A DNA stretch of 64,000 nt, from IMG/VR virus record IMGVR_UViG_3300024258_000017. One strand, given 5' to 3'. A program made the position numbers and the translations under genes. Source of the DNA: an uncultured virus (IMG/VR IMGVR_UViG_3300024258_000017). Its lineage: Duplodnaviria > Heunggongvirae > Uroviricota > Caudoviricetes. Of the stretch, positions 3,344 to 63,395 are shown in pieces. Each line of letters starts with the position of its first letter. Positions within the stretch are counted from its first letter, which is position 1. Under the pieces are notes generated by a model. That model did no database searches and was not told the DNA's origin. It saw only the letters and a list, made by a program, of their open reading frames with translations.

Positions 3344-4577
3344 ATACTCAAAATATATTATACATATAGAATAATTATATATAACTTTGTATCCATTCGA
3401 GCGGACATTTTACCGACGGTATTATCATTATTATCATTAATTCGATACAATACACTACATTGTAACTTCATAGCGTATTTGGTGCAATATTGGACGTAAT
3501 AAGCATAATTAAACATATTAGTACATATTAGAATAATACGGGGTGATATACGGGTGATATATCCCGCTCTCAGTAGGTTAAAAATTCCGGCGGGTTTTCT
3601 GGATGCATAGCAATTTATTAACGTCTCAAAGATTGAATTCTGATATAATTCTGCATACATCCAATCAATAAAACCCCAATAAGACACAGTAACAATCTTA
3701 TATCCTTTCCAGAGCGTAAACAGCTATTAAATAGAGTAAACAGTTTTAAATGATATTAAACACTTGTACCCCTCACATATTTTTTAAAATTTATTAATCA
3801 GAATTCACAATAATTTTAAATTCTCTCAATAACTCAAAATAATATTTAATATTAAAATATATTCAAACTATTCTATATACTTTCATAAAATTTTTAATCC
3901 GATTTAGTCCGCTCTGCATGTTCACGGGGTAAAATATCAGCAATTATTCAATATTAGATATATAGCTTTTTTTATATATTCGCATAATATCGTATTATCA
4001 GAATAATTATTTAAATGATTGAATATATTAGAATTAATTGCCGTTCAAGACGGGGTAAATTTCCAAAATCGAAAAATTCGTTCTCATTTACTTTAGGAGG
4101 AACTGCGGATTATAATAAAGTCTAAAATATTTAAGGGGGTTGAAACTTTTATAAAGTATTGTGCGTGGAAGATCATACAGGGGATAATTTGGTTAAGAAT
4201 GGATATTGCAGAATATAATTTGGTATTGGGTATAAATAAAAAATGTCTCCCGAGGGTTGTTGCGTATAAATGTAGATGTCGGAGGTGTGTCTTCGGGGGA
4301 TCGAGGATTTACCGCCCGAAAATTTGGTGCGTGGTGGGGGTGCTGGAATTGGGGTGGTTTTGAATCGGAGGTTTTGGTCCTCAAAAGGTCAGAAAAAAAA
4401 TCTCCTGTAAAAATATGGGTTTAGTAAATGTCGCCCACGGAAGAGTACCGCCGGGTTTGGTGCGTATTAATACCGGTGACTCTTATTTAAACGTGGTAAG
4501 GTATAGTAGGCTATGGTATTATATGTTAGGATAGGTAGGTTGAGCGTCGTAATATATAGCGTCGCACAGGAAACACT

Positions 4578-4787
4578 ATGAATAAAAAACAATATTATAC
4601 GCTCACTGATGTCGCCCTTAATCTGGGTGTACACAACAATACCGCCAGAAAACTTATTACCTCGGGTGAAATTAAATCCTACAAAATTGCGGGTAGATAC
4701 AGGATCGATGCAAAAGACCTCGCCGAATACCTGAAGAACTGCAGAGTTGAAAAATCTACCGTGCTTGGTGTGGAGGTGCCGGAATGA
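4578..4787 (+). CDS. excisionase-family HTH DNA-binding protein
   Basis: YYTLTDVALNLGVHNNTARKLITSGEIKSYKIAGRYRI (HTH_17 pattern). Confidence 0.85.
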   Translation: MNKKQYYTLTDVALNLGVHNNTARKLITSGEIKSYKIAGRYRIDAKDLAEYLKNCRVEKSTVLGVEVPE

Positions 4788-4953
4788 TTAAACTCAGATT
4801 AATGGCTGGTAAATATTATAATCCAAGCGAGGATGATCTTTTATTAACACCCGCCATTGTGTATGCCACGGCAAAATATAACGACAGGGACGCAAAGGCA
4901 ATAGGAATTACGTGGATTCATTGGACCTTTGGGATAGCTTGGATTAGAGGTAA

Positions 4954-5295
4954 ATGATGGAACATGGATACAAAGGACTCACCGAAGATGGTCGATGGGC
5001 GTATGGTGGTTTAGTCGATGGTATTTATATTGTCAGTGGATTAACCGATTTAGGTAATTATTATATGTGTTGCCCAGATCAAGTCCGCCCAGAAACGGTT
5101 GGGAGATGGACAGGTCACAAGGATTGGTACATAGGTGATTATCTTGGTGTAGTTGGTGGATCGAAAAGGAAGTATGAAATTGTATGGGATCAAGAGCGTT
5201 TTTCTATTATGGCAAAGTGCCTCACTTATAATTCTGTGAACAATATTAGAAACACAAAGAATTTAGAAAGGATTGGTAACAAGTGGGAGAAGTAA
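4954..5295 (+). CDS. YopX-family phage protein
   Basis: W-x-YGGL, VRPETVGRWTG, C-terminal ERIGNKWE. Confidence 0.75.
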   Translation: MMEHGYKGLTEDGRWAYGGLVDGIYIVSGLTDLGNYYMCCPDQVRPETVGRWTGHKDWYIGDYLGVVGGSKRKYEIVWDQERFSIMAKCLTYNSVNNIRNTKNLERIGNKWEK

Positions 5296-5404
5296 TAGTA
5301 AACGGAAAAGTATATCCTATGTGGAATCAATTCATTGAAAGAAAAAAGGAATGGATCGGTGGGATACTTGAAGACACTGAGTATGGTTCTGTGACTACCA
5401 CTAT

Positions 5405-6087
5405 CGGCAAAGTATATGAGTCGTGGCAGATAGAAAGCACCTACTTATCGGATAGTAAAAAAGTAAATAGATAAACAGAAATTAAGAATTAAACAACAAC
5501 CTGCCATTACTTATATACATTGTTATATGCTGTGGCGGATTTAAAAAACGAAATTATGACCAAAAACGGAAAACCAACAAAGCCAAATACAACTAAAAAG
5601 GCTACTGCTACTGACAAAGTGTTTACTAAAAACACAACAGCAAAATGGATTGTAGATTATTATAAACCACAAGGCTCGATATTAGAACCTGCTGCAGGGG
5701 AAAATGCTTTTTACGATTTATTTTATAATGAGAATAAATACAGATGTGAAATTGACGAAGGAACTGATTTCTTAAATTGGGATAAAAAAGTAGATTGGAT
5801 AATTACAAACCCACCTTATAGTATTTATGACCTATTTTTAGAAAAAGCATTTTCTATTGCTGATAATGTTGTGTTTTTTGTGCCGATAGCCAAAGCGTTT
5901 AAAAGTAATAAGGTACAGAATATGGTTATGGAATACGGTGGTTTAAAAGAGATTGTGTATATGGGCTGTGGCAGTAAACACGGTTTTGCTTTTGGTTCTC
6001 CTGTTGGTTGTTTGCATTATCAAAAAGGCTTTGTGGGTGATTGTAAAATAACTTATGTAATAGACGAATGGTAGCCATTGCATATAA
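5405..6087. mobile_element. integron-like gene cassette (attC-like hairpin plus MTase)
   Basis: GTTATATGC at 5522-5530 and GCATATAAC at 6080-6088; circularising the insert gives a long imperfect palindrome; insertion point reads G|AT on the minus strand. Confidence 0.7.
5556..6074 (+). CDS. N6-adenine DNA methyltransferase (small)
   Basis: ILEPAAGENAF (motif I) and IITNPPY (motif IV); ATG 5556 chosen as start. Confidence 0.85.
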   Translation: MTKNGKPTKPNTTKKATATDKVFTKNTTAKWIVDYYKPQGSILEPAAGENAFYDLFYNENKYRCEIDEGTDFLNWDKKVDWIITNPPYSIYDLFLEKAFSIADNVVFFVPIAKAFKSNKVQNMVMEYGGLKEIVYMGCGSKHGFAFGSPVGCLHYQKGFVGDCKITYVIDEW

Positions 6088-6278
6088 CACTGATATAACA
6101 TTATCAGAGAATGGTAAGGACTCTGCAATGTTTATGATTCATGTAAAGATTTTGAGTGTGGTTTTGATGTGCGTCATGGTGGGATCACTGGCGGAGATGA
6201 TGAAGGTTGGACGAACTTTAGTGGGTACGGTGGGCATACATTTAGAATGCAAAATAATAAATCTCAGGAGGATGGGGA

Positions 6279-6620
6279 ATGAATGACCGATTAACCATTC
6301 TGATTAAACAGTATGAAGACATTACCAATAAAAAAGCGGGGTATTATGGTGGAGAGGACGATCAATACATCTATTGTAGCCATTTTATTCTATGGGTTGA
6401 CGATAGGGCTGAGGATTGTTTAAGTCTGGCAAAGGGCTGTCTTAATGAATATGGTGGTGGCTATAGAGGGGATGCCAAGAAATTAATAATCTATCATCAT
6501 GGTATTCAGACAGTAATAAATGTCATCAAAGAGTTTCTTTCAAAAGGATTAAAAGATAATCTGCAGTTAAAAACATTAATGGCTATGGGAAAAGCCGAAG
6601 GGGAGAAAGATGAAAATTAA
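6279..6620 (+). CDS. hypothetical phage protein
   Basis: ORF in a tightly packed operon, GGAGG upstream. Confidence 0.65.
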   Translation: MNDRLTILIKQYEDITNKKAGYYGGEDDQYIYCSHFILWVDDRAEDCLSLAKGCLNEYGGGYRGDAKKLIIYHHGIQTVINVIKEFLSKGLKDNLQLKTLMAMGKAEGEKDEN

Positions 6621-6785
6621 AGTAACATACACGGATGGCATTGTCGTTAGGGCAAAAATTATAGAAGTTAATACTGTCTTTGATATAGCTGATCAATGCT
6701 CAACTCTCAGCATTTTTGATTCTGACTTTATCAAAGCAGAGAGAATCTTTGAGGCTGATCCTCATAACATAATGGATATGACCCA

Positions 6786-7004
6786 ATGAAAATTGAACAA
6801 ACACTTTGGTTTAATGAAATGAGTAGCACCAGACCAATTGGGATAGTAATCGGGTCTGATGAAGTTACGGGCGAGAAGAAAGCATTTATTGGTACTGGGG
6901 ATGGGATTAGTGCCTCTGGTGATGCCAAACACATTACCGAGTGGGGAACGAAATTAAAAAAGCACATGATTAAAGAAATATATAATCAGATGATTATTCC
7001 GTAG
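6786..7004 (+). CDS. hypothetical phage protein
   Basis: ORF in operon. Confidence 0.6.
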   Translation: MKIEQTLWFNEMSSTRPIGIVIGSDEVTGEKKAFIGTGDGISASGDAKHITEWGTKLKKHMIKEIYNQMIIP

Positions 7005-36877: not shown

Positions 36878-37372
36878 ATGAAAAACCTTATAATGATAAT
36901 CATTCTACTCTTTTTAACAGCAAGTATATTCGCAGGAGAACCGGATTGGGGCGTAAATCCGCACGACTACGAGTTCAACGGCAATATGTTTGCCTATGTT
37001 GACGGGATTGGAAGAAACGTCGAGGAAGGTGATGTTTTGGCTGTTTTTGTCGGGGATGAATGTAGGGGTATTAGCACCGCACTATTATTTCCGCCAACAG
37101 GCAAGATGTTACTTTTGATTACTATCTTTAGCAATTCGAAAGAAGAGGGCATGGATTTAATTTTTTATGACTCAGTTAAAGATAGGATTGTTGGTGGATG
37201 GAATTTAGAATTCTTGGAAAATATTGTTGCAGGATCACCTAATTATCCATTTGTCATATCGATCCCACAGGTGAGAATGAGAAAGTTCACACCAAAAGAT
37301 AAATTCAAAATGAATATCCCACCCGGCAAGATCGTTCCTATAACAGAAAAGAAATCTGGACGGAATAAATGA
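36878..37372 (+). CDS. secreted protein with bacterial surface-protein-like domain
   Basis: Signal peptide MKNLIMIIILLFLTASIFA; WGVNPHDYEFN...GDVLAVFVGDECRG. Confidence 0.6.
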   Translation: MKNLIMIIILLFLTASIFAGEPDWGVNPHDYEFNGNMFAYVDGIGRNVEEGDVLAVFVGDECRGISTALLFPPTGKMLLLITIFSNSKEEGMDLIFYDSVKDRIVGGWNLEFLENIVAGSPNYPFVISIPQVRMRKFTPKDKFKMNIPPGKIVPITEKKSGRNK

Positions 37373-37908
37373 AACCACCCACCTCTTACGAAGATGTAAT
37401 AGCCGAAGTTTTTGAAACTGAAGGCGGTTATGTCAACAGTAAAACTGATCGGGGTGGGGCTACAAACTTAGGGCTTACAATCGGAACGATGAAGGCTCTT
37501 AAAATGGACTTGGATGGCGACGGTGACGTTGATATAGATGATGTCAAGATATTAACGAAAGAAGATGCTATGCCAGCCTATTACGACGAATTCTGGGTAA
37601 GGGGAAGGGTTGATCGTTGCCCTCCCCTTCTCCGTTACTTACATTTTGATTCATGTGTACATCACAGCCCATACAGAGCCATTAAAATTTTACAGAAGGC
37701 TTACAACCACATGAGAACGACAAACCGGATTAAAGTAGATGGCAGGTTTGGTTCGAGGACAGAAAAGGCAGTGAGCAAATTAAAACTTAATGTCTTGATC
37801 TATTACAGAATTAAATATATCTGTGATATAGTTCGCAATGATTCATCTCAGGATGCAAATTTTACCGGTTGGATGAACCGTATAACATCGTTTTTAAAAT
37901 ATATTTGA
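37369..37908 (+). CDS. endolysin, glycoside hydrolase family 108
   Basis: EGGYVNSKTDRGGATNLG, C-terminal GWMNR. Confidence 0.9.
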   Translation: MKPPTSYEDVIAEVFETEGGYVNSKTDRGGATNLGLTIGTMKALKMDLDGDGDVDIDDVKILTKEDAMPAYYDEFWVRGRVDRCPPLLRYLHFDSCVHHSPYRAIKILQKAYNHMRTTNRIKVDGRFGSRTEKAVSKLKLNVLIYYRIKYICDIVRNDSSQDANFTGWMNRITSFLKYI

Positions 37909-39128: not shown

Positions 39129-39572
39129 ATGGCGACATTATTTTCAGCCCTGTATAGTAATATCCGTTCCGCCTGTGGTGATCATGGAGCGATTAAGGAT
39201 GGTTCCTTAGATTCTGGCACAGTTGAATTCCGAGATGATATGATCGATAGTGCCATACAACTTTTCCTCTACGAACTAAGTGGATATTCAGATGATGGTT
39301 CTGAAGGGATAACCCCAACAATAGCCAGCGACGAAGACAGATTAATTATAATCTATTCGGTCGCTTTAATGTTATTGCTTGGTATGGAAGACTTGACCAT
39401 CCAGACGGACATAAAGATTACCATTGGACAGGGATCGAAGGATTTAAAAATAATGAACGTCGCATCAAAATTAAAACATCTTCTTGATGTGAAAACAATA
39501 CCCATGGCAACTGATTCATCAAAGAATGCAATACGGTATTTAGCCGACAGGGTAATACAGGAGGCAACATGA
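39129..39572 (+). CDS. putative head-tail adaptor
   Basis: IRSACGD...FRDDMID pattern; size and position. Confidence 0.5.
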   Translation: MATLFSALYSNIRSACGDHGAIKDGSLDSGTVEFRDDMIDSAIQLFLYELSGYSDDGSEGITPTIASDEDRLIIIYSVALMLLLGMEDLTIQTDIKITIGQGSKDLKIMNVASKLKHLLDVKTIPMATDSSKNAIRYLADRVIQEAT

Positions 39573-40755: not shown

Positions 40756-41688
40756 ATCACTAAGACCAACACAGTTAAACATATAGATGAAGGATACCTT
40801 TATGCCGTGCTAATGTCCGATAACGGGCATATTGCCAAATTCTGTGTTACGGGGGCAGGGGTATCAGTAATTAAGTCTGGGGATGTTTCATATTCCTCTG
40901 GCGAGGTAATTGTTATCCCACGAACCCCACTATTAAGCGCAGTAAGTATTTGTGTTGGTATTACTGGTTCAAACGAACCTGTTTATGTTGAGTTCACGGC
41001 AAACACCCCAGCTTTCCATGCCAAGAAAACGAGTGGCGGTACCTTAGATTCTATACCGGCTACATATCCGAGGATTCCATACACGACCGTATCTGTAGGA
41101 TTAGCTGGATCAGAAACAACCATCAATGTCGTATCAACAAAGGGGTTCCCGTCGTCAGGTACAATTATAGTTGGTGTAACATCATTTACTTATACGAGTA
41201 TAACCACAACCAGTTTTATAGGTGGAAGTCCAATTGGTGGCGGGGCGCAAGGAATTGGTACCGCAGTCAAGAAGTCTGATGCAAACCTTGGGGCAGAAGG
41301 AATGGTTTTTGATATTATGACTATTCCGACGATTATATCTTCAAATCTAATTGGTTATGTGACAGCAATGAGTTCACAACCACAAATAATTAGCAGAGAC
41401 ATCCGACATAGGGGAGTCCTTAAAAGTAGAAAACGAATGTTGAATCATGACAAGAGTTTATCTATCACTAAACTATTTCAGAACGATGACATGGCGCTGA
41501 TGGACCTCATGGGGAGAGACGTGGCGTTAAAATTGGAAAGACAGGATGATATGGCGGGGCTTACTACGGAAGAATTATATTTTTTCCAAGCCTACGGGAA
41601 TCGACCGGCACAGTCTGAAAGCGCCGGAGATAATGATTCTGATATCGTATGTGAATTTAATTTCCAAAGATTTTGTATTATTGATTAA
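40756..41688 (+). CDS. tail-tube-like protein, paralog 2 (probable ATC start)
   Basis: Near-duplicate of paralog 1; identity extends upstream of the ORF-track start at 40807. Confidence 0.6.
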   Translation: MTKTNTVKHIDEGYLYAVLMSDNGHIAKFCVTGAGVSVIKSGDVSYSSGEVIVIPRTPLLSAVSICVGITGSNEPVYVEFTANTPAFHAKKTSGGTLDSIPATYPRIPYTTVSVGLAGSETTINVVSTKGFPSSGTIIVGVTSFTYTSITTTSFIGGSPIGGGAQGIGTAVKKSDANLGAEGMVFDIMTIPTIISSNLIGYVTAMSSQPQIISRDIRHRGVLKSRKRMLNHDKSLSITKLFQNDDMALMDLMGRDVALKLERQDDMAGLTTEELYFFQAYGNRPAQSESAGDNDSDIVCEFNFQRFCIID

Positions 41689-56335: not shown

Positions 56336-56549
56336 TTCTTGGTGCCTTCCCAGACTTAATAATATCTGTTAATTCGTCTAATGCTTTTTCAACTTCATCA
56401 ATGGTATAGTTCATTGCGTCTCGATTAGAAAATTTATGAAAAATTATGGCATCCCTAACTTTTTGTTTAGCATGTTCATGATCCTTTGCATATAATTCGA
56501 CCACCAGTTTTCTCTTAAATATCTCGAAGTAAACGGCATATAATATCAT
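56328..56549 (-). CDS. hypothetical protein
   Basis: Overlapping operon ORF. Confidence 0.6.
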   Translation of the reverse strand: MILYAVYFEIFKRKLVVELYAKDHEHAKQKVRDAIIFHKFSNRDAMNYTIDEVEKALDELTDIIKSGKAPRNE

Positions 56550-57295
56550 TTGCGTTCTCCAATCAGTAGTTGACCGCCACTGTCTATAATCTTTTTAATT
56601 GACTTTGGATCGACGTGATCCTTAATTGCCTCATTCATGTGACAAATATTCTTTAAAAGGTTTACAAAAAATAATGCTGTCTCTTCCGTTGCTTCTATCT
56701 GCATTGCGTTGTGGTCAAAATTGTATTTATCACTTCTTGCCGGTCCCATCCCACACATAGCGTTTAACCAATCTATGTTGGTATTCTTTCCACTATCTGT
56801 TATTGTTTCATACTCTTTTACTATCTTTCCACTTCTGAATTTATAATCACGTTCCATTAATACCACCAAACATATCTGAATTCCCCAAGGATAATATTCA
56901 TTGGTACTTCTTTTCTTGGTTCCTCCACACCAACCACCTTTGTCTGAATCAGAATCCCACGAACCATTGGGAAGGAACTCACCGCTTTTATTTTTCCAGT
57001 AATCACAAGAGGTATCAATGAGATACCTTATGATAAGATTTTCACTGATTATTTCTCTACTGGTATATTCTGACATAACATCGTTGACTTTATCCGTCAA
57101 CCCTTTTATGGTATTACTACTGAAGTATCCATAATTCTTTGCCCTATTTGTCATAAGGTTTATTCCAGTAGCTATTATAGCTTTTGCTAAATATTTATCT
57201 ATTGTCGTGGTGAATTCACCTTCTGAGGTTACATTGATTGTATAACTATACAACTTTCCATAGACCTTGTGTGAAATAGTGGTTACTCTTGGCAT
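56546..57295 (-). CDS. hypothetical phage protein
   Basis: 249-aa ORF, AAGGA RBS. Confidence 0.7.
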   Translation of the reverse strand: MPRVTTISHKVYGKLYSYTINVTSEGEFTTTIDKYLAKAIIATGINLMTNRAKNYGYFSSNTIKGLTDKVNDVMSEYTSREIISENLIIRYLIDTSCDYWKNKSGEFLPNGSWDSDSDKGGWCGGTKKRSTNEYYPWGIQICLVVLMERDYKFRSGKIVKEYETITDSGKNTNIDWLNAMCGMGPARSDKYNFDHNAMQIEATEETALFFVNLLKNICHMNEAIKDHVDPKSIKKIIDSGGQLLIGERK

Positions 57296-57307
57296 TGTTT
57301 ATCCTTT

Positions 57308-57769
57308 TTAAAACATTGTGGACGTGACAATCTCTTCAGCACGTTCTTCGCTGATACCAATTTTCTCATTCATCTCTTTGCATATCATTAGTGCAGACTC
57401 ATAAGACCCGTGTGGGTAGACTGTCTCTTGGGTTACAAGATAACCGCTAACATTTTCTGTCGCAATTAAAATGCAGAATATCGTATCTTCTTTATCCCCA
57501 TCACAGCCACGTTGTAAGTTTTCCAATACAAAATAAGCCTGTTCATTATTATCCACTCCGATCATAGATGGTACTGAATCCATGGCTGTTACAATTGCAA
57601 GAAGTTCTAATTCCACACGGTTGATTGAGACTTTATCCAGTTTCCCTATATCGTCATAGTCTTCTTGCCAATTAATTTGACAGTCTGATAGTGACGAACT
57701 CAGCATTCCCCTTGCGATTAAACTGGCATGGTGGAATGTTATTGTGGATTTCTTTTTTTCGTCTGTCAT
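57308..57769 (-). CDS. hypothetical protein
   Basis: AAGGA RBS. Confidence 0.6.
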   Translation of the reverse strand: MTDEKKKSTITFHHASLIARGMLSSSLSDCQINWQEDYDDIGKLDKVSINRVELELLAIVTAMDSVPSMIGVDNNEQAYFVLENLQRGCDGDKEDTIFCILIATENVSGYLVTQETVYPHGSYESALMICKEMNEKIGISEERAEEIVTSTMF

Positions 57770-57777
57770 GATGTTCC

Positions 57778-58512
57778 TTATATGTTAATTACAATTATTG
57801 AACTTGAAACCATCGTCCCTGAAGTCTGAAAGGCTCCGCTCTTAGTCTGATAGACTGTTGCGTCCATGTCTTTCAGGAAGTCACGGAATTTCGTTTCCTT
57901 CCTGTTCTTTGAAAATGACCAGTGCAATGAAGCTATTGAAACCAATCGTCCACCCGGGCGGAGTCGTTCACACATGCGTAATATGTGATCGATGTCCTGA
58001 TTTTTGGCGAAAGGTGGATTGGCAATAACCCTATCGTAATAAAAATTAATTGGGTCTTTCATAAAGTTCCTGCCGACTAACTGTATGTTTTTTAGTTTAT
58101 TGAGGGCTACAATATTGACATCCATGAGTTCAGCAACGTGAACAACCACATCCTTATTGACCCGATGGATAGCATCTACAATGGCACCACGACCGGCAGA
58201 TGGTTCCAGTATGTGCATGTCAGGCTCTATCTCTGCCAGATTCACGATATGATCAGCAAGTTTAGGGGGAGTTTCAAAGAACTGAAACTCTTTTTTCAAA
58301 TCTACTTTCTCCCCTGCTTGCAGTTTAGTCAAGTAGGGTGTTGGGTCTTCAGAAAAAACAAAACCCTGAGTTCTGCCACCCTTCCATTTGCCACCGATAA
58401 TTTTCATGGCTTTTTTCACTTTTAAATAGATATCCCTATCCAATTGAATCGCCGGAAGATTTATGATCATCCCTGAAACGGAAAGGTTATTGATTGCTTC
58501 TTGATAGTTCAA
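57778..58512 (-). CDS. SAM-dependent (N6-adenine type) DNA methyltransferase
   Basis: FFETP, ILEPSAGRGAI, IANPPF. Confidence 0.85.
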   Translation of the reverse strand: MNYQEAINNLSVSGMIINLPAIQLDRDIYLKVKKAMKIIGGKWKGGRTQGFVFSEDPTPYLTKLQAGEKVDLKKEFQFFETPPKLADHIVNLAEIEPDMHILEPSAGRGAIVDAIHRVNKDVVVHVAELMDVNIVALNKLKNIQLVGRNFMKDPINFYYDRVIANPPFAKNQDIDHILRMCERLRPGGRLVSIASLHWSFSKNRKETKFRDFLKDMDATVYQTKSGAFQTSGTMVSSSIIVINI

Positions 58513-58523
58513 ATGCGTTACTC

Positions 58524-59075
58524 CTAATTAATGTCGTTTTTTGATATGTACTTTCCAATATCCCTGTCGGTATTGTTCTTAACGGTATCCCTGATCATCA
58601 TGTGCAGGGTTTCATCATCGATCCCCGTCTCTGTCAGATCAATCACTGACAGATCAGCACCCTCTAACAAGGCTTGGAATCTCTCTTCATATCCATCCTT
58701 CCATAGATTCTTAGTAATAACAAATACACCATAATCTGTTCTCACAGTATCAAGCCCCTCCGTTATTGGCGTTGGGTCTTCACCAAGGATGTTCTTAACT
58801 TTATTCATAGACCTCCGACCAGCAGAAACAGAGTTTCCTATGACAATAATCAGAGCCATAAAGTTCTCGTCCTCGTCCTTGCCCGATGTAATTTTCCCAC
58901 AATGAACACAGGTATAAACAACCTGTACCTCTCCAACTCTTTCCCCGTTGGTTTCAAAATTCACGGCATCTTTTTTGAATTTACTGATAGTCGTCTCAAT
59001 AAATAACTGCCCTCTACAGGGAACACAGATTAAACAGCTTTCATCGTAATCAAAAGTCGATTTCTCTTTTGTCAT
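58524..59075 (-). CDS. Zn-ribbon hypothetical protein
   Basis: CVPC...CVHCG. Confidence 0.55.
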   Translation of the reverse strand: MTKEKSTFDYDESCLICVPCRGQLFIETTISKFKKDAVNFETNGERVGEVQVVYTCVHCGKITSGKDEDENFMALIIVIGNSVSAGRRSMNKVKNILGEDPTPITEGLDTVRTDYGVFVITKNLWKDGYEERFQALLEGADLSVIDLTETGIDDETLHMMIRDTVKNNTDRDIGKYISKNDIN

Positions 59076-59562
59076 CTTGTTTCTTTTCCTTATATATATT
59101 TTTAAAATTAATGTCTAATAAATTTGGTTCCCATACTACGGGTAGTTTTGATTCCTGTTTTACAAAGCGCACGTTCTTTGCACCTTTCGGCAGAAACAAT
59201 GGTCGCATCAGAAAGTAACTATCGTTTAAAGTAATTTCATCCTTTTTTACTCGGATGATATTGCACCCTTCCAATGTCCTGACTGCATCATGCCACTGCC
59301 ATTCACGACCGCCTATGTCCCTACACATCTGTTCACGATGATAGTTTATCACTGAGAATCTTCTTTTCTCAGAAGCCAACTTTGGGATGTAATTCAATGC
59401 CTTGGCAGATAACTCACCTACTTTAATCAGTAACCTCAGATCAAACTTATCCATTGATAATAAATGAACGGCGACATCTTCATGCAGGAATATAGGGAAC
59501 TGAGAATAGTGTTCCCTCCTATTCTTGTACCCTAATTCAAGCGCCCTGTCTTTTTTGCTCAT
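59050..59562 (-). CDS. hypothetical (possible wHTH) protein
   Basis: Overlaps the recombinase stop. Confidence 0.55.
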   Translation of the reverse strand: MSKKDRALELGYKNRREHYSQFPIFLHEDVAVHLLSMDKFDLRLLIKVGELSAKALNYIPKLASEKRRFSVINYHREQMCRDIGGREWQWHDAVRTLEGCNIIRVKKDEITLNDSYFLMRPLFLPKGAKNVRFVKQESKLPVVWEPNLLDINFKNIYKEKKQDDKREIDF

Positions 59563-60653
59563 AGTTGAATTCCGTTTTGATGGAAGACAGTCAGCATATT
59601 CTCATGTGACGGGTGATAATAATGTTTCTGGATTGTTGTAGTCTCACACCCTGCGATCTGAGACAGTTGTTCCATGGAGAACATATTGTGTCCGCTCTCC
59701 AATTTGAGTTCACATAATTTTGTAATGAAGTAATGTCTGAATCTATGGGGTGACAGGTCTTCGACGTTCGCCCCTATCGCCCATCTCTCAACTGTTTTAC
59801 CAATTGTCCGTTCATTCATAGCCAGACTGGTATCAACTCTATCGGTCCTCTTGATAGTTGGAAACAGGTATCCGGCTGTATCCCCGCCTGATCGCCCACT
59901 GTAAGGGCTATAATGATGAACGAATTCATCGATATATCTTTTTATAATCAGCAATGTATTTTTACTGGTCGGTACCATTCTCCAACCATCTTTATTCTGT
60001 GATGTCTTCATCCCGTAGATATTAATATAACCTTTTTCGAAATAGACATTTGAAACTTTCAATGAAATAACTTCATTCACCCTGACCCCAAGGTTCACCA
60101 ACACCTCAAGAAGAGCCATGTCCCTTGACTTTATTATGATTTCCAGTGGTGTGACCGCCTTCCTCTTGGCAAGGTAGTCTCTGATTGAATCAACCTTCTC
60201 CCTGTTCAGTGGAGTCTTTGACTTCAGTTTCTTTTCTGTATTTGATTTTCGAATGTAAACAAATGCCCAGTTAGGATCAAATTCTGTGATGCCTTCATAG
60301 TTTGCCCACCGGAAAAAATCAGCAATAGCAGACTTGTATAGATTCCGAGTAGTCTTTTTCATGTGCTTATTAAATAAGCTACTGAAAAAATCTAACAGAC
60401 TCTTTTGATCTGCATGTAATAATATATCACCTTTTATTTCATCCCATTGAGATTCAAATTTATTCCTGACTTTTCTATTCATAAAAAGCCATCCATTAAA
60501 TGTCAGGACATATCTATAATATTGTTTGATTGTATTTTGTGCCAAGTTCCGTTCTTGGAGTTCGAGATGTGATTTATAATCCTTGACACAGTTGGGAATA
60601 AATACCCTTCCCTTTCTTTTGTCTGTCAAAATCATTTTCATTCTACCTTCCAA
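59559..60653 (-). CDS. tyrosine recombinase/integrase (XerC/D-like)
   Basis: N-terminal NLAQNTIKQY, RD.A....L...GVRVNE, HRFRH, C-terminal Tyr. Confidence 0.9.
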   Translation of the reverse strand: MEGRMKMILTDKRKGRVFIPNCVKDYKSHLELQERNLAQNTIKQYYRYVLTFNGWLFMNRKVRNKFESQWDEIKGDILLHADQKSLLDFFSSLFNKHMKKTTRNLYKSAIADFFRWANYEGITEFDPNWAFVYIRKSNTEKKLKSKTPLNREKVDSIRDYLAKRKAVTPLEIIIKSRDMALLEVLVNLGVRVNEVISLKVSNVYFEKGYINIYGMKTSQNKDGWRMVPTSKNTLLIIKRYIDEFVHHYSPYSGRSGGDTAGYLFPTIKRTDRVDTSLAMNERTIGKTVERWAIGANVEDLSPHRFRHYFITKLCELKLESGHNMFSMEQLSQIAGCETTTIQKHYYHPSHENMLTVFHQNGIQL

Positions 60654-61192
60654 TCATTTCTTTCTGCCATGGCGACCATCTTATCCCAGTCCTCGCCTAA
60701 TTCACCCGTTACCCTGTCGAAAATTTCTCGGTCAGTCTTTTTTATGTGCATGAAGTAAGCCCAGACTCTTTCCCAGTTAGGTTCTACTGATATTGTTTTC
60801 ACCCTGTTTTCCCTGTTGTAATAATTACATAGTGCTTCAAAGGCTGTTGCACCCGTCTCAATTATTTGTTTTCCAGAATTGGGTGAGGCTACCCATTTTT
60901 GTTCAAAGTCTATAAACAGGTCTATCCCATTTGCAATGGCATACCTTAGAAATTCACTCTCATGAATCAGCCAGCTTTTACATAATTCATCAGTTCTCTT
61001 TTTACTTGCGCCGAGATTCTTTGCCTCGATTAAAAACTCAAGTGTTGCTATCCGGTCATGCAGATCAAGACACCACCATTTTACAACGAAGTCACTCTCA
61101 AAATAAATTTCAGGTGTGTCAGCATCGACGACAGCAGGATTCTTATGGATTAAATTGCCACCTGTATGCAGATAATAATAACACTTTAACAT
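60638..61192 (-). CDS. hypothetical phage protein
   Basis: YYYLHTGGNLIHK; operon ORF. Confidence 0.65.
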   Translation of the reverse strand: MLKCYYYLHTGGNLIHKNPAVVDADTPEIYFESDFVVKWWCLDLHDRIATLEFLIEAKNLGASKKRTDELCKSWLIHESEFLRYAIANGIDLFIDFEQKWVASPNSGKQIIETGATAFEALCNYYNRENRVKTISVEPNWERVWAYFMHIKKTDREIFDRVTGELGEDWDKMVAMAERNDWKVE

Positions 61193-61527
61193 TACATACC
61201 CACCTTTTCCGGTACAGCAGTAAGCCCAAAAGAATTTTCAGCCTTATTGATATAGACATCAATCGTTTCTTGTGTCGTCCACTCTTCATATATCCCATCA
61301 TCATTATTGTAATCAATTGGGTTACACCATTCCAACCTACTGCCCTGTTTAAAAACCTTATGATAAGACCCGTCGGTGTATTTATCTACTTTCAAACTTT
61401 CATACCAATCCATTAATTCCTGTTTATCATAGGCAACCGCTACCATATTTAATTTTTCATAATTAGCAGGAATTGGATTTAGATATAATTTAAAAACTAA
61501 TACCTGTGTTATCGTTCTTGTCTGCAT
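61192..61527 (-). CDS. hypothetical protein
   Basis: GGAGG RBS. Confidence 0.65.
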   Translation of the reverse strand: MQTRTITQVLVFKLYLNPIPANYEKLNMVAVAYDKQELMDWYESLKVDKYTDGSYHKVFKQGSRLEWCNPIDYNNDDGIYEEWTTQETIDVYINKAENSFGLTAVPEKVGM

Positions 61528-61784
61528 TACATGCCTCCTGCACCCGCATTCAGAGCCGATACATTTGATTCAGTTGTATATACACATGTCCAAATTGATT
61601 GATTAGAGTACCCTGTCAGAAGGAAAGTATATTTTAGTTCCCAGTCTGCATCATGCAAAGTCATGGTTGTCACCCCAATTAAAAAATCATTATCATCCCT
61701 GTCGCAAGACTTCATTTGAAGTTCTTCGAGAACACTTTGTTCTCCAATCTGATTGAATGTATAGTCTTTATTTTTAATAAACAT
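61527..61784 (-). CDS. hypothetical protein
   Basis: AAGGAG RBS. Confidence 0.6.
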   Translation of the reverse strand: MFIKNKDYTFNQIGEQSVLEELQMKSCDRDDNDFLIGVTTMTLHDADWELKYTFLLTGYSNQSIWTCVYTTESNVSALNAGAGGM

Positions 61785-61796
61785 TTGTTCTCCTTT

Positions 61797-61832
61797 TCAT
61801 CCCACCCCGCAGATTGTAGCAGGATGGGATGA
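61797..61832 (-). promoter_or_regulatory. 14-bp hairpin directly 5' of an RBS
   Basis: Minus strand UCAUCCCAUCCUGC/GCGGGGUGGGAUGA with two G-U pairs, then AAGGAG. Confidence 0.5.
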
Positions 61833-62088
61833 CGCTTTTTTTTCTTTGAAATAACACACAAATTAAGGTGTTGAATATCTTGGGTGTGGCTTAGTTAATC
61901 TGGTTTCATCGTTCGGACGATGACAGCCCTCCGCCTTGGCAGTTTTCTTGCGCTGATCAGCTTCGACCCAAGTGTAATTTTTGTGATATTTGTGTCATGA
62001 GGGGGTCGCCTCCAAGAGATGAACATGCTATTATAACGATAATAATAGCATCTGTAAATGGTATAGGCACGATCACGATATAAACCAA

Positions 62089-62841
62089 TCATATAATTAT
62101 TGCCCACCATCCACGCAGAGGGTCTTTATATGGTTTGTTCGGTATAGGAATATGCAATTCTCCGCTACAAAACCCTGCCTCGATTAATTTTTCAATATGT
62201 TCAATGCTTACTTCATCAATTTCCCCGTTGAATTTATCTTCAGAAAATTTATCAAACACATTGTATCCAATTTCGTGTTGTAATATTTCAGTACGGTGTT
62301 CAAATAATTTTTCTTCTGTTGTCTCTGGCTCGGAGATATTTTTTACTGGTACTTCTAAAACGAATCTTCTGTTCCAAGCCTGTATTGCTTCACTCTCTTT
62401 AGAAAATACTGCCACTGACCCAAGTCTCATAATGCAAAAACTTGTAACACAATCAACTGAATAATCAGGATCATTAGTAACCTTGATGTGTCTCTCTTCG
62501 ACTATACCTTCACCTCCGCAGAACGGGCATGGTTTTATTCCGGTCTTTTTACTTTTGGGTAATGGTAGTTTATCAAGATCGCTTTGTAACACTGATATTT
62601 TATCCGTGTAATCTTTTCTCAAAAGAGTAGGGTTGTTTCCCTTGTTCCACCTTTTAATAATTTCATTGTCGGTAATATCCCAATTACAATTTTTTATTTC
62701 GACCTTATGACCACAGGAACATTCCCCCCACGAAACATTGAAAGTACTGTACCCACAATTATAAATCTTAATGTCCTTGTTACCGCATTTGATACATGGT
62801 TTTATTTTAATCCGTTTTGCCATTATAAAGACCTCTTGCAA
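62089..62841 (-). CDS. tandem Lar-like (restriction alleviation) zinc-ribbon protein
   Basis: IKPCIKCG...IKRWN and IKPCPFCGG...EAIQAWNRR. Confidence 0.75.
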   Translation of the reverse strand: MQEVFIMAKRIKIKPCIKCGNKDIKIYNCGYSTFNVSWGECSCGHKVEIKNCNWDITDNEIIKRWNKGNNPTLLRKDYTDKISVLQSDLDKLPLPKSKKTGIKPCPFCGGEGIVEERHIKVTNDPDYSVDCVTSFCIMRLGSVAVFSKESEAIQAWNRRFVLEVPVKNISEPETTEEKLFEHRTEILQHEIGYNVFDKFSEDKFNGEIDEVSIEHIEKLIEAGFCSGELHIPIPNKPYKDPLRGWWAIII

Positions 62842-63395
62842 TCTCGTAGCCGTTCGAATATTTCTCCACCTGTTTTAGACCCTGTTGGAAAATATTGATA
62901 ACCACGATTATTTGGAAGTTCCTTTATCTTCCCGATTAATTTTTTGTCTAAATATACCTTGAGATAAAAGATTTCTTTAAAGGTAACGCCTTTAGATAAT
63001 GTTTCTCTCATTTTAACCTCCCAGTTAAACTTAAATAATTGTGATAAATCTTCTCTGACTTTAGGGTGAAGGGTTACTCGACCCTGAGATGTACAACCAA
63101 CAGGTATAAAATATCCATCCTGTATCATCGTTGTCAACCGTTCAATAATCTTTTCAAGTGGTTGAACTTCCAAATATTTTATGATGTTTTTGTATTGGTG
63201 TTTGAAGTCATGGAATTGAGCTGACATATTATCGTGCTTTATTACTTGGCTTATGCTCATAACAAAACAGTTCGGTGCATCTTTTACCCGTTCAATGTTC
63301 GGATTATCAGGCAGTGATTCTATCCTTGTTGTGATGTATCGTTTAATATATTCAACCTGTTCAGAGATACCGTCTATCTTTGAAATTAAATCCAT
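62823..63395 (-). CDS. hypothetical protein
   Basis: 190-aa operon ORF. Confidence 0.6.
   Translation of the reverse strand: MDLISKIDGISEQVEYIKRYITTRIESLPDNPNIERVKDAPNCFVMSISQVIKHDNMSAQFHDFKHQYKNIIKYLEVQPLEKIIERLTTMIQDGYFIPVGCTSQGRVTLHPKVREDLSQLFKFNWEVKMRETLSKGVTFKEIFYLKVYLDKKLIGKIKELPNNRGYQYFPTGSKTGGEIFERLRDCKRSL

Follow-up and report, generated by a model that had tools for sequence, protein, structure and literature searches.

How did the gene for a small DNA methyltransferase come to lie within another gene of a tailed phage? The question is raised by a stretch of 64,000 nucleotides (hereafter, the window) from an uncultured marine virus of the Caudoviricetes (IMG/VR record IMGVR_UViG_3300024258_000017), a phage or prophage-like sequence of about 37% G+C with a long run of plus-strand genes that include tail, capsid and lysis functions. 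A first-pass annotation, made from the sequence alone, had proposed that the phage acquired an anti-restriction gene by recombination of the type seen at integron attC sites, and had suggested looking for relatives with an empty site and for the same hairpins beside other genes. We consider it likely that positions 5405-6087 are a single mobile cassette, belonging to a family of hairpin sites of flavobacterial phages and Bacteroidota, which was inserted at a secondary target by a tyrosine recombinase. Of the earlier proposal, the lone cassette stands and now has a site family behind it, the classical combination of IntI and attC does not stand, and the anti-restriction role is a prediction from fold and motifs only.

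The open reading frame (ORF) at 5283-5474, of 63 amino acids, and the frame beginning at 6089 are the two halves of one gene. Deletion of 5405-6087 joins 5283-5404 to 6088 onward in frame, as had been claimed, and the relatives with an empty site do exist: with the N-terminal part as query, two uninterrupted homologues of this conserved protein of about 107 residues were detected in metagenomes, one in locus L002 (2684-3010, 108 amino acids) and one in L003 (4004-4327, 107 amino acids). In a coordinate-based alignment the joined reading of the window is colinear with both at the junction, no residue being gained or lost. The 5′ part of the gene now reads through into the cassette and meets a stop at 5472-5474, giving the 63-residue ORF. 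The insert is 5405-6087 (683 bp) or equally 5406-6088, since a single C at 5405/6088, and nothing more, is ambiguous; the absence of a target duplication noted at the outset holds. A third metagenome locus, L004, was dropped, as it encodes an unrelated 319-residue protein with a short common motif, and the split gene used as a query of genome contigs gave 90 pattern matches, none of which was confirmed. By blastn, window positions 4500-7000 had no match among 50,697 phage records, and the flanking genes, used as probes of viral contigs, returned 0 relatives and 1 weak relative; close relatives of the window phage are therefore absent from that viral-contig collection.

The 3′ half of the gene carries a further change, the loss of one base near 6140-6142 (region 6121-6150). 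Beyond this shift the conserved C-terminal half of the relatives runs on in another frame of the window and ends at 6280-6282, where the ancestral frame overlaps the ATG of the next gene (6279) as ATGA; the gene end, first placed at 6286, is corrected to 6282 owing to the frameshift. Because the same sequence of this region is found in contigs from three separate runs (X16, X17 and X20), the shift is not a local assembly slip. The split gene looks as though it has been decaying since the insertion, and appears dispensable. Another relative of it, P0002 (44 amino acids, on a 1.1-kb ENA contig), keeps 82% identity as far as GGILED, beyond which it departs from the split gene and soon meets a stop; it may be another disrupted allele. 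Immediately to the right of the insertion, at 6090-6107, a short palindrome of the target gene (CTGATA...TATCAG) encloses an R-box-like ATAAC as part of its loop.

The organization of the insert is summarized in Table 1. Along the plus strand it reads C5405, a 3-nt spacer, an arm (5409-5429), a 71-nt loop, the opposite arm (5501-5521), GTT with a 12-nt R arm, a leader, the ORF and the inverse of the R arm. The first arm pairs with 5501-5521, within the 5501-5530 originally given: the stem has 18 Watson-Crick pairs, two G.T pairs (G5418:T5512 and G5423:T5507) and two mismatches over 21-22 positions. It is ungapped and contains no bulged (extrahelical) base, as had been remarked. The 15-mer 6074-6088 returns inverted at 5522-5536 with two mismatches, i.e. 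the 13 matches out of 15 first reported, and the outer arms are 84% complementary over 19 nt (5518-5536 versus 6074-6092), so that the cargo stands within a private GTT...AAC inverted repeat (5522-6088). Taken alone, a search with the 15-mer is at chance level (four matches versus 2.4 expected) and a search for 9-mer inverted repeats is near background (22 pairs in the window versus 18 after shuffling); such searches are informative solely as a tiling combined with hairpins. Joined head to tail, the ends form one long imperfect hairpin, of −16.8 kcal/mol for the plus strand and −15.5 kcal/mol for the minus strand with DNA parameters. The left junction is ATC (5403-5405) and not the AAC of the family, which we interpret as the mark left by a secondary target. 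A relaxed scan of both strands of the window, for hairpins followed by GTT and with the AAC requirement dropped, found this site only (as 5412-5524; 1, 0 and 0 in shuffled sequences); the strict AAC...GTT rule gives no match in the window, because the left triplet is ATC. A plain minimum-free-energy scan of AAC...GTT intervals was set aside as too noisy.

Table 1. Features of the interrupted gene and of the inserted cassette (window coordinates)
Feature	Position	Strand	Description
5′ part of interrupted gene	5283..5404	+	40 codons and 2 bases; first 31-40 residues align to L002, L003 and P0002
Folded recombination site	5403..5524	+	122 nt: ATC (replacing AAC), 5′ spacer, stem, 71-nt loop, stem, GTT
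Inserted cassette	5405..6087	+	683 bp; defined by empty-site relatives and by homology ends in other cassettes
Hairpin 5′ arm	5409..5429	+	21 nt; G5418 and G5423 in wobbles
Hairpin 3′ arm	5501..5521	+	complementary to 5409-5429
Proximal R-box arm	5522..5536	+	starts with GTT; inverted repeat of 6074-6088
DNA methyltransferase ORF	5556..6074	+	172 amino acids; gamma-type N6-adenine catalytic domain, without a separate target-recognition domain
Distal R-box arm	6074..6088	+	ends with AAC (6086-6088); crossover at AA|C (6087|6088) or just past the C
3′ part of interrupted gene	6088..6282	+	in frame with the 5′ part to about 6139, then shifted

That this unit moves is apparent from other phages. 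Homologues of the window ORF occur in 13 viral loci. In four of them (L005-L008) the protein is 79-91% identical and the whole architecture is repeated, with the hairpin ahead of the ORF; the left flanks end in AAC and the right flanks, mutually unrelated, are made up of a further methyltransferase cassette, the gene of an integrase, additional hairpins or just plain sequence. Homology to the window at the nucleotide level stops exactly at 6088 in four of the seven loci compared (L006, L008, L016 and L017), within 9 nt of it in two (at 6093 in L005 and 6097 in L007) and earlier, at 6058, in L009. A 3.7-kb contig of run X17 matches only the hairpin module (5411-5533, with ten differences and one gap); both of its flanks differ from the window and the left one ends in AAC. 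It follows that the cassette unit moves, and that it does so with the ends seen in the window insertion. The contigs of L005, L006 and L007 (named G001, G002 and G003) carry arrays of four, eight and eight tiled cassettes, respectively, in which each cargo lies inside its own 9-10-bp GTT...AAC inverted repeat and neighbouring cassettes are joined by a hairpin (raw hairpin matches in G001-G005 numbered 5, 5, 14, 1 and 2, versus 0-6 in shuffled sequences). The same hairpin family, for which the first-pass annotation had proposed a search, thus flanks other genes, in these arrays as well as in other phages and in bacteria. Some sites contain a small ORF in the hairpin loop, for instance that of a DUF551 protein (G003 37330-37617; G002 39313-39517), and their loops may attain 200-290 nt.

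The structure is conserved as a structure. In an alignment of 11 family sites that excluded the window, with the pairing drawn by hand, 90.2% of the paired cells are complementary, versus 67.7% after shuffling (none of 500 shuffles as high), and 16 of the 23 pairs show changes on both sides; when the partner column is slid by 1-3 positions, pairing falls to 34-48%. The AAC and GTT triplets are invariant. One stem pair, the distal wobble, is G.T in all 11 sites, and another is G.T in six; the window has its distal wobble at the family position, 5-6 bp from the loop, as G5423:T5507. Arms pair with their own partner at 10.6 of 12 positions versus 7.7 ± 1.1 for arms taken from different sites, even with offsets re-optimized, only 3 of 420 cross pairs reaching the own-arm mean. 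A covariance model (R1) built from these 11 sites, still without the window, has a single match in it, at 5403-5524 (52.6 bits, E = 2e-8, model positions 1-124 of 124); this model and the hairpin scan both find one site in 64 kb, so that the site is solitary, as first described. R1 also matches sites in L016, L017, Polaribacter phage Freya and two bacterial arrays. Over the family, the 5′ spacer measures 3-8 nt, the 3′ spacer 0-5 nt, the loop about 10-280 nt and the R arms 9-15 bp.

The sites also have a polarity. In 20 of 21 array sites folding is better for the ORF strand than for the opposite one; all 21 have ungapped stems, and stem wobbles are G:T in 26 cases versus T:G in 5; the strand asymmetry arises from these G.T wobbles. 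As phage sites favour the strand that codes, a role in RNA was at first a serious alternative. In a bacterial array, L086, all R1 matches are on the minus strand and the ORFs on the plus strand. Here the favoured strand is non-coding, and the asymmetry therefore follows the polarity of the site and not transcription.

On this basis a route for the insertion may be proposed. The ends of the cassette would be joined in a free circle, and the plus strand would fold, R-box arm upon R-box arm (6074-6088 with 5522-5536) and inner arm upon inner arm (5409-5429 with 5501-5521), into the long imperfect hairpin, which would mimic the two-arm core site of a tyrosine recombinase. Such an enzyme would cut the folded strand at AA|C and exchange it with the phage gene at ...TAT|C, so that ATC replaces AAC, and the reaction would probably be completed by replication, as in integron attC recombination; the target gene was split without duplication and acquired its frameshift later. 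Anatomy and natural variation lend good support to plus-strand folding, to a cut at AA|C and to ATC as a secondary target. The crossover first placed at G|TT of the minus strand (AA|C of the plus strand) at a secondary site agrees with the empty-site relatives, the array cassettes and the covariation. It is because the window insertion is solitary that the unit can be read as a hairpin followed by its gene, and that the crossover can be assigned to AA|C of the ORF strand; the arrays alone are ambiguous. As there is no second site to its right, the cassette is probably locked in place, and because it is co-directional with the phage early genes, the methyltransferase is probably expressed by read-through.

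Which enzyme could have done this? Directly 3′ of the last cassette in L007 lies the gene of a 266-residue integrase with domains PF13495 and PF00589, which scores 165 bits with the archaeal XerA model and 150 bits with the integron-integrase model TIGR02249 (cut-off 265), both below cut-off. In an alignment it has 29 residues where VchIntIA, or IntI4 (2a3v), has 77, a stretch which we take to be the region of the IntI-specific insertion (I2 helix). The role of the I2 helix region in IntI is taken from PMC7790495. The integrases annotated in Cellulophaga phage Ingeline (Ingeline_1) and in Freya are homologues of the L007 enzyme at 35-39% identity; family sites lie just upstream of both genes, and a motif common to the two ends in AAC at 40-80 nt from the start codon. 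The ten Freya records measure 43,978 to 48,920 bp, the position of the integrase shifting with length. A comparison of the two extremes, Freya_1 and Freya_10 (L117, and L118 with L036), the other eight being intermediate, shows flanks that are 99.9-100% identical around a block of about 4.9 kb immediately upstream of the integrase; this block of cassettes opens with a hairpin arm directly after AAC and closes in AAC. Bartlau et al. 2021 (PMC8776804) take these phage integrases as a sign of temperate life, and the words integron and cassette are absent from the main text of that paper.

The association extends to bacteria. Confirmed relatives of the integrase are encoded in 488 stretches of genome contigs, mostly from Bacteroidota among the 80 of 488 listed. 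Family sites are enriched downstream of the integrase gene, where 183 kb contain 69 (minus strand) and 40 (plus strand); upstream, 379 kb contain 26 and 20, versus 7 in shuffled upstream sequence. Two metagenome-assembled genomes of Bacteroidota (Chryseolinea), L086 (5560-12807) and L087, have nine family sites each in 6 kb, in arrays downstream of a related integrase, and their ORFs lie opposite the favoured hairpin strand, so that the gene-to-site orientation is the reverse of that in phages. For the window, the most likely enzyme is a compact Xer-like integrase of the array-adjacent type, which a co-infecting phage or the host would have supplied in trans.

Several observations weigh against the cassette reading, or at least against parts of it. 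The only tyrosine recombinase of the window (59559-60653, minus strand) is 54 kb away and XerD-like; the absence of an adjacent intI had been noticed at the outset. This enzyme, with 91 bits to the XerD model and 23 bits to the integron-integrase model, is only 26% identical over 103 residues to that of L007, and a tblastn search of the window for the array-linked family gave a best E of 0.47; a role for the window integrase in moving the cassette is conceivable but not supported. Relatives of the L007 integrase were found neither in the window nor in G001, G002, G004 or the Polaribacter phage P12002L. Since G001 (94% complete) and G002 (100% complete) bear arrays and yet have no PF00589 match, an action of the enzyme on family sites is putative. 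R1 has no match at E ≤ 1 in P12002L (L034) or Ingeline (L035), where the sites were recognized by eye and by the scanner only. At the junction, L002 and L003 have the codon ATA and the window AT|C, so the ancestral target base is an assumption. The contigs of four runs, picked as possible empty-site alleles for holding 44-67% of the words, turned out to be low-coverage fragments of the window phage, and neither the circle junction, nor the empty site, nor the joints were present in these contigs, which cannot reveal rare forms. The activity of the methyltransferase, too, is a prediction.

Could the insert be a classical integron cassette, i.e. one with a true attC site that IntI moved from a host integron to a GNT secondary site of the phage? 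The resemblance is considerable. As in integrons, a promoterless gene is associated with one imperfect hairpin site, AAC and GTT triplets pair, R and L arms are separated by an unpaired spacer, the loop is variable, the crossover is equivalent to G|TT, circularization restores a complete site in array cassettes and one folding strand is favoured. Integron cassettes can insert at secondary sites of the GWT type without duplication and are then locked, which is what the window insertion resembles. Known phage CALINs (clusters of attC sites lacking an integron integrase) provide a further link: Qi et al. 2023 (PMC9892861) describes such clusters in phages, together with five cassettes that encode methyltransferases, and finds that IntI1 recombines five out of six phage sites. 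One of these phages, P12002L, has the site family between its methyltransferase and Mom-like genes, and the attC1 of that study is one of the family, called as an attC by HattCI. However, P12002L_attC1 was predicted by HattCI only, and in the same study it is the sole one of the six without a verified IntI1 junction; attC2, the site of P12002L that does work, has a different sequence, is on the other strand and lies at the array end. As a separate observation, both methyltransferase arrays of P12002L (L034 29150-29260 and 36940-37320) finish in the same sequence of about 70 nt past the last AAC, and the opposite strand of this end sequence is attC2, which IntI1 recombines according to the same source.

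There are also differences. Family stems are ungapped and have, in the place of extrahelical bases, an invariant G.T wobble; their R arms reach 9-15 bp; the phage ORFs are on the folding strand with the hairpin before the gene (in L005-L008 and in the window, for which the reversed orientation had initially been reported), whereas L086 has the canonical arrangement; and the linked recombinase lacks the IntI insertion, with 150 bits against a cut-off of 265 for TIGR02249 and 29 residues against 77 in IntI4. Two defining features of integrons, extrahelical bases and an enzyme of the IntI type that bears the I2 insertion, were looked for and neither was found, so that the insert is not a classical integron cassette: the system is integron-like and seems to rely on a recombinase simpler than that of true integrons, and we regard a transfer by IntI as unlikely. 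With at least two nearby sites and no intI as the definition of a CALIN, G001 and G002 qualify and the window, with one site in 64 kb, does not; it shares with P12002L the site family and the methyltransferase cargo, but is a single cassette within a gene and not a cluster. Qi et al. takes the sites for ordinary attC, and makes no mention of the site family, its strand polarity, the G.T wobble or a linked recombinase.

A second explanation is that the hairpins are regulatory elements or terminators between genes, shuffled by homologous or illegitimate recombination, and that the window insert is an accident. In T4-type phages, genes are indeed shuffled at promoter-stem-loop modules, the sites are intergenic and repeated, the arrays occur in accessory regions, and two array-bearing phages of nearly full or full completeness have no PF00589 tyrosine recombinase. 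But the window target and the cassette ends are homologous at one base only; the ends coincide exactly with the AAC of the family; every cassette is bounded by an inverted repeat of its own, which makes sense only once the cassette is circular; and no run of T follows the window hairpin, where a terminator scan makes no call. Nor would a regulatory element be expected to have its G.T-favoured strand coding in phages and non-coding in L086, or the Freya block to be bounded by AAC beside an integrase. We find this explanation improbable, even a little more so than transfer by IntI. Single-strand transposons of the HUH (IS200/IS605-like) type insert beside a short motif, duplicate no target and make use of hairpins, and a cargo-carrying derivative of one would account for the lack of duplication, for a hairpin at one end and for the strand asymmetry; its right end, however, has no hairpin and pairs with the left end rather than with itself, tandem arrays with common junction sites are unlike that family, the neighbours are tyrosine recombinases, and no TnpA-like match was found among 57 window ORFs scanned, so that it has very little to recommend it. 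Hardly credible, finally, although removal of the insert does restore the frame, is an intron of group I or II (Rfam gives no match over the whole window at gathering thresholds and only chance snoRNA-type matches, no intron, for 5000-6600 at E ≤ 10; the insert ends in A or C and not in G; the downstream gene part is frameshifted; and the same unit stands between genes in arrays elsewhere) or a mere pair of separate genes, since L002 and L003 hold one continuous gene.

For the single mobile cassette that we prefer, a mechanistic parallel outside integrons is Xer recombination on folded single strands. At the attP of the CTX phage, XerCD acts on a folded single strand and integrates the whole phage at dif. 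Common to the two would be an Xer-type enzyme, a hairpin that mimics the duplex core, the exchange of one strand and the involvement of replication; there, though, a whole phage enters dif, and here single genes pass between arrays. Tentatively, then, and as a wider claim that we find attractive without quite favouring it, the sites may belong to an undescribed analogue of integrons in Bacteroidota and their phages, with an Xer-like recombinase devoid of I2, single-stranded hairpin sites whose strand is coded by the invariant G.T wobble, reversed genes and an exchange of counter-defence functions. If this is true, the recombination of cassettes as single strands either evolved in the absence of the I2 helix or is older than that helix, and the counter-defence stock includes several methyltransferase families and a Thoeris inhibitor. 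Full-text searches of the literature outside subscription journals found no description of the family, the G.T signature, the reversed gene orientation or the Xer-like partner.

As to the cargo, the window ORF has motif I (EPAAGEN) before motif IV (NPPY), which is the gamma order, and both are conserved in an alignment of homologues. It matches PHROG 799 (DNA methyltransferase) with an E of 5e-22, and the Pfam families Eco57I and N6_Mtase below cut-off. Its AlphaFold2 model (pLDDT 81, pTM 0.81) has the class I methyltransferase fold; the nearest solved folds found by Foldseek are M.TaqI (TMq 0.61-0.68), type I M subunits, M.BseCI and CamA, with E of about 1e-5 for M.TaqI and the type I M subunits, while a methyltransferase profile compared to PDB sequences gave motif-level matches only (best E 0.002). 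The model and motifs would place the protein among the gamma-class N6-adenine methyltransferases. Homologues are present in 257 phage records, of which the 30 listed show 34-47% identity across 49-83% of its length. The ORF shares motifs I and IV and a TaqI-like catalytic fold with the small orphan methyltransferases of phages (PHROG 799; RefSeq entries of cyanophages and of Vibrio and Klebsiella phages). To go by fold and motifs only, the enzyme probably protects phage DNA from host restriction.

Other cassettes of the family carry MT-A70 (three) and N6_N4_Mtase (two) proteins, another PHROG 799 protein, DUF551 and unknowns. One in L007 (1308-1943) encodes Tad6, of a Thoeris inhibitor family (Pfam E = 5e-41), and one in L027 (1201-1413; G003 41185-41447) a stand-alone FtsK gamma domain of 71 residues (Pfam E = 1e-23). 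The bacterial FtsK gamma domain activates XerD, and its presence in a cassette beside an array with an Xer-like recombinase is suggestive. The contents of these few arrays, given here as a description, look consistent with stores of counter-defence genes. Acceptor and T arms can be recognized in an element of a 110-nt cassette (L007:2253-2336); it is tRNA-like only, as it scores 19.9 bits with the Rfam tRNA model (threshold 29) and is not called by ARAGORN.

That these phage cassettes do move is shown most cleanly, among natural evidence, by a solitary insertion whose empty site is known. What is new in it is the non-canonical ATC target, which fixes the crossover as AA|C on the better-folding strand of the hairpin. 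The system can strike ordinary genes at ATC, and so it can both deliver counter-defence genes and break genes of the phage. Confirmation of the linked Xer-like enzyme would establish a second route to integron-type gene capture. The system would probably escape integron finders that depend on IntI and on extrahelical bases. The cultured Polaribacter and Cellulophaga phages make the system testable, their isolates already differing by blocks of cassettes.

Elsewhere in the window, the XerD-like integrase is surrounded by a block of minus-strand genes (56546-63395) without hairpin sites, in which a small-domain methyltransferase (57778-58512) and a Lar restriction-alleviation protein (62089-62841) are encoded; this block is a second counter-restriction locus.

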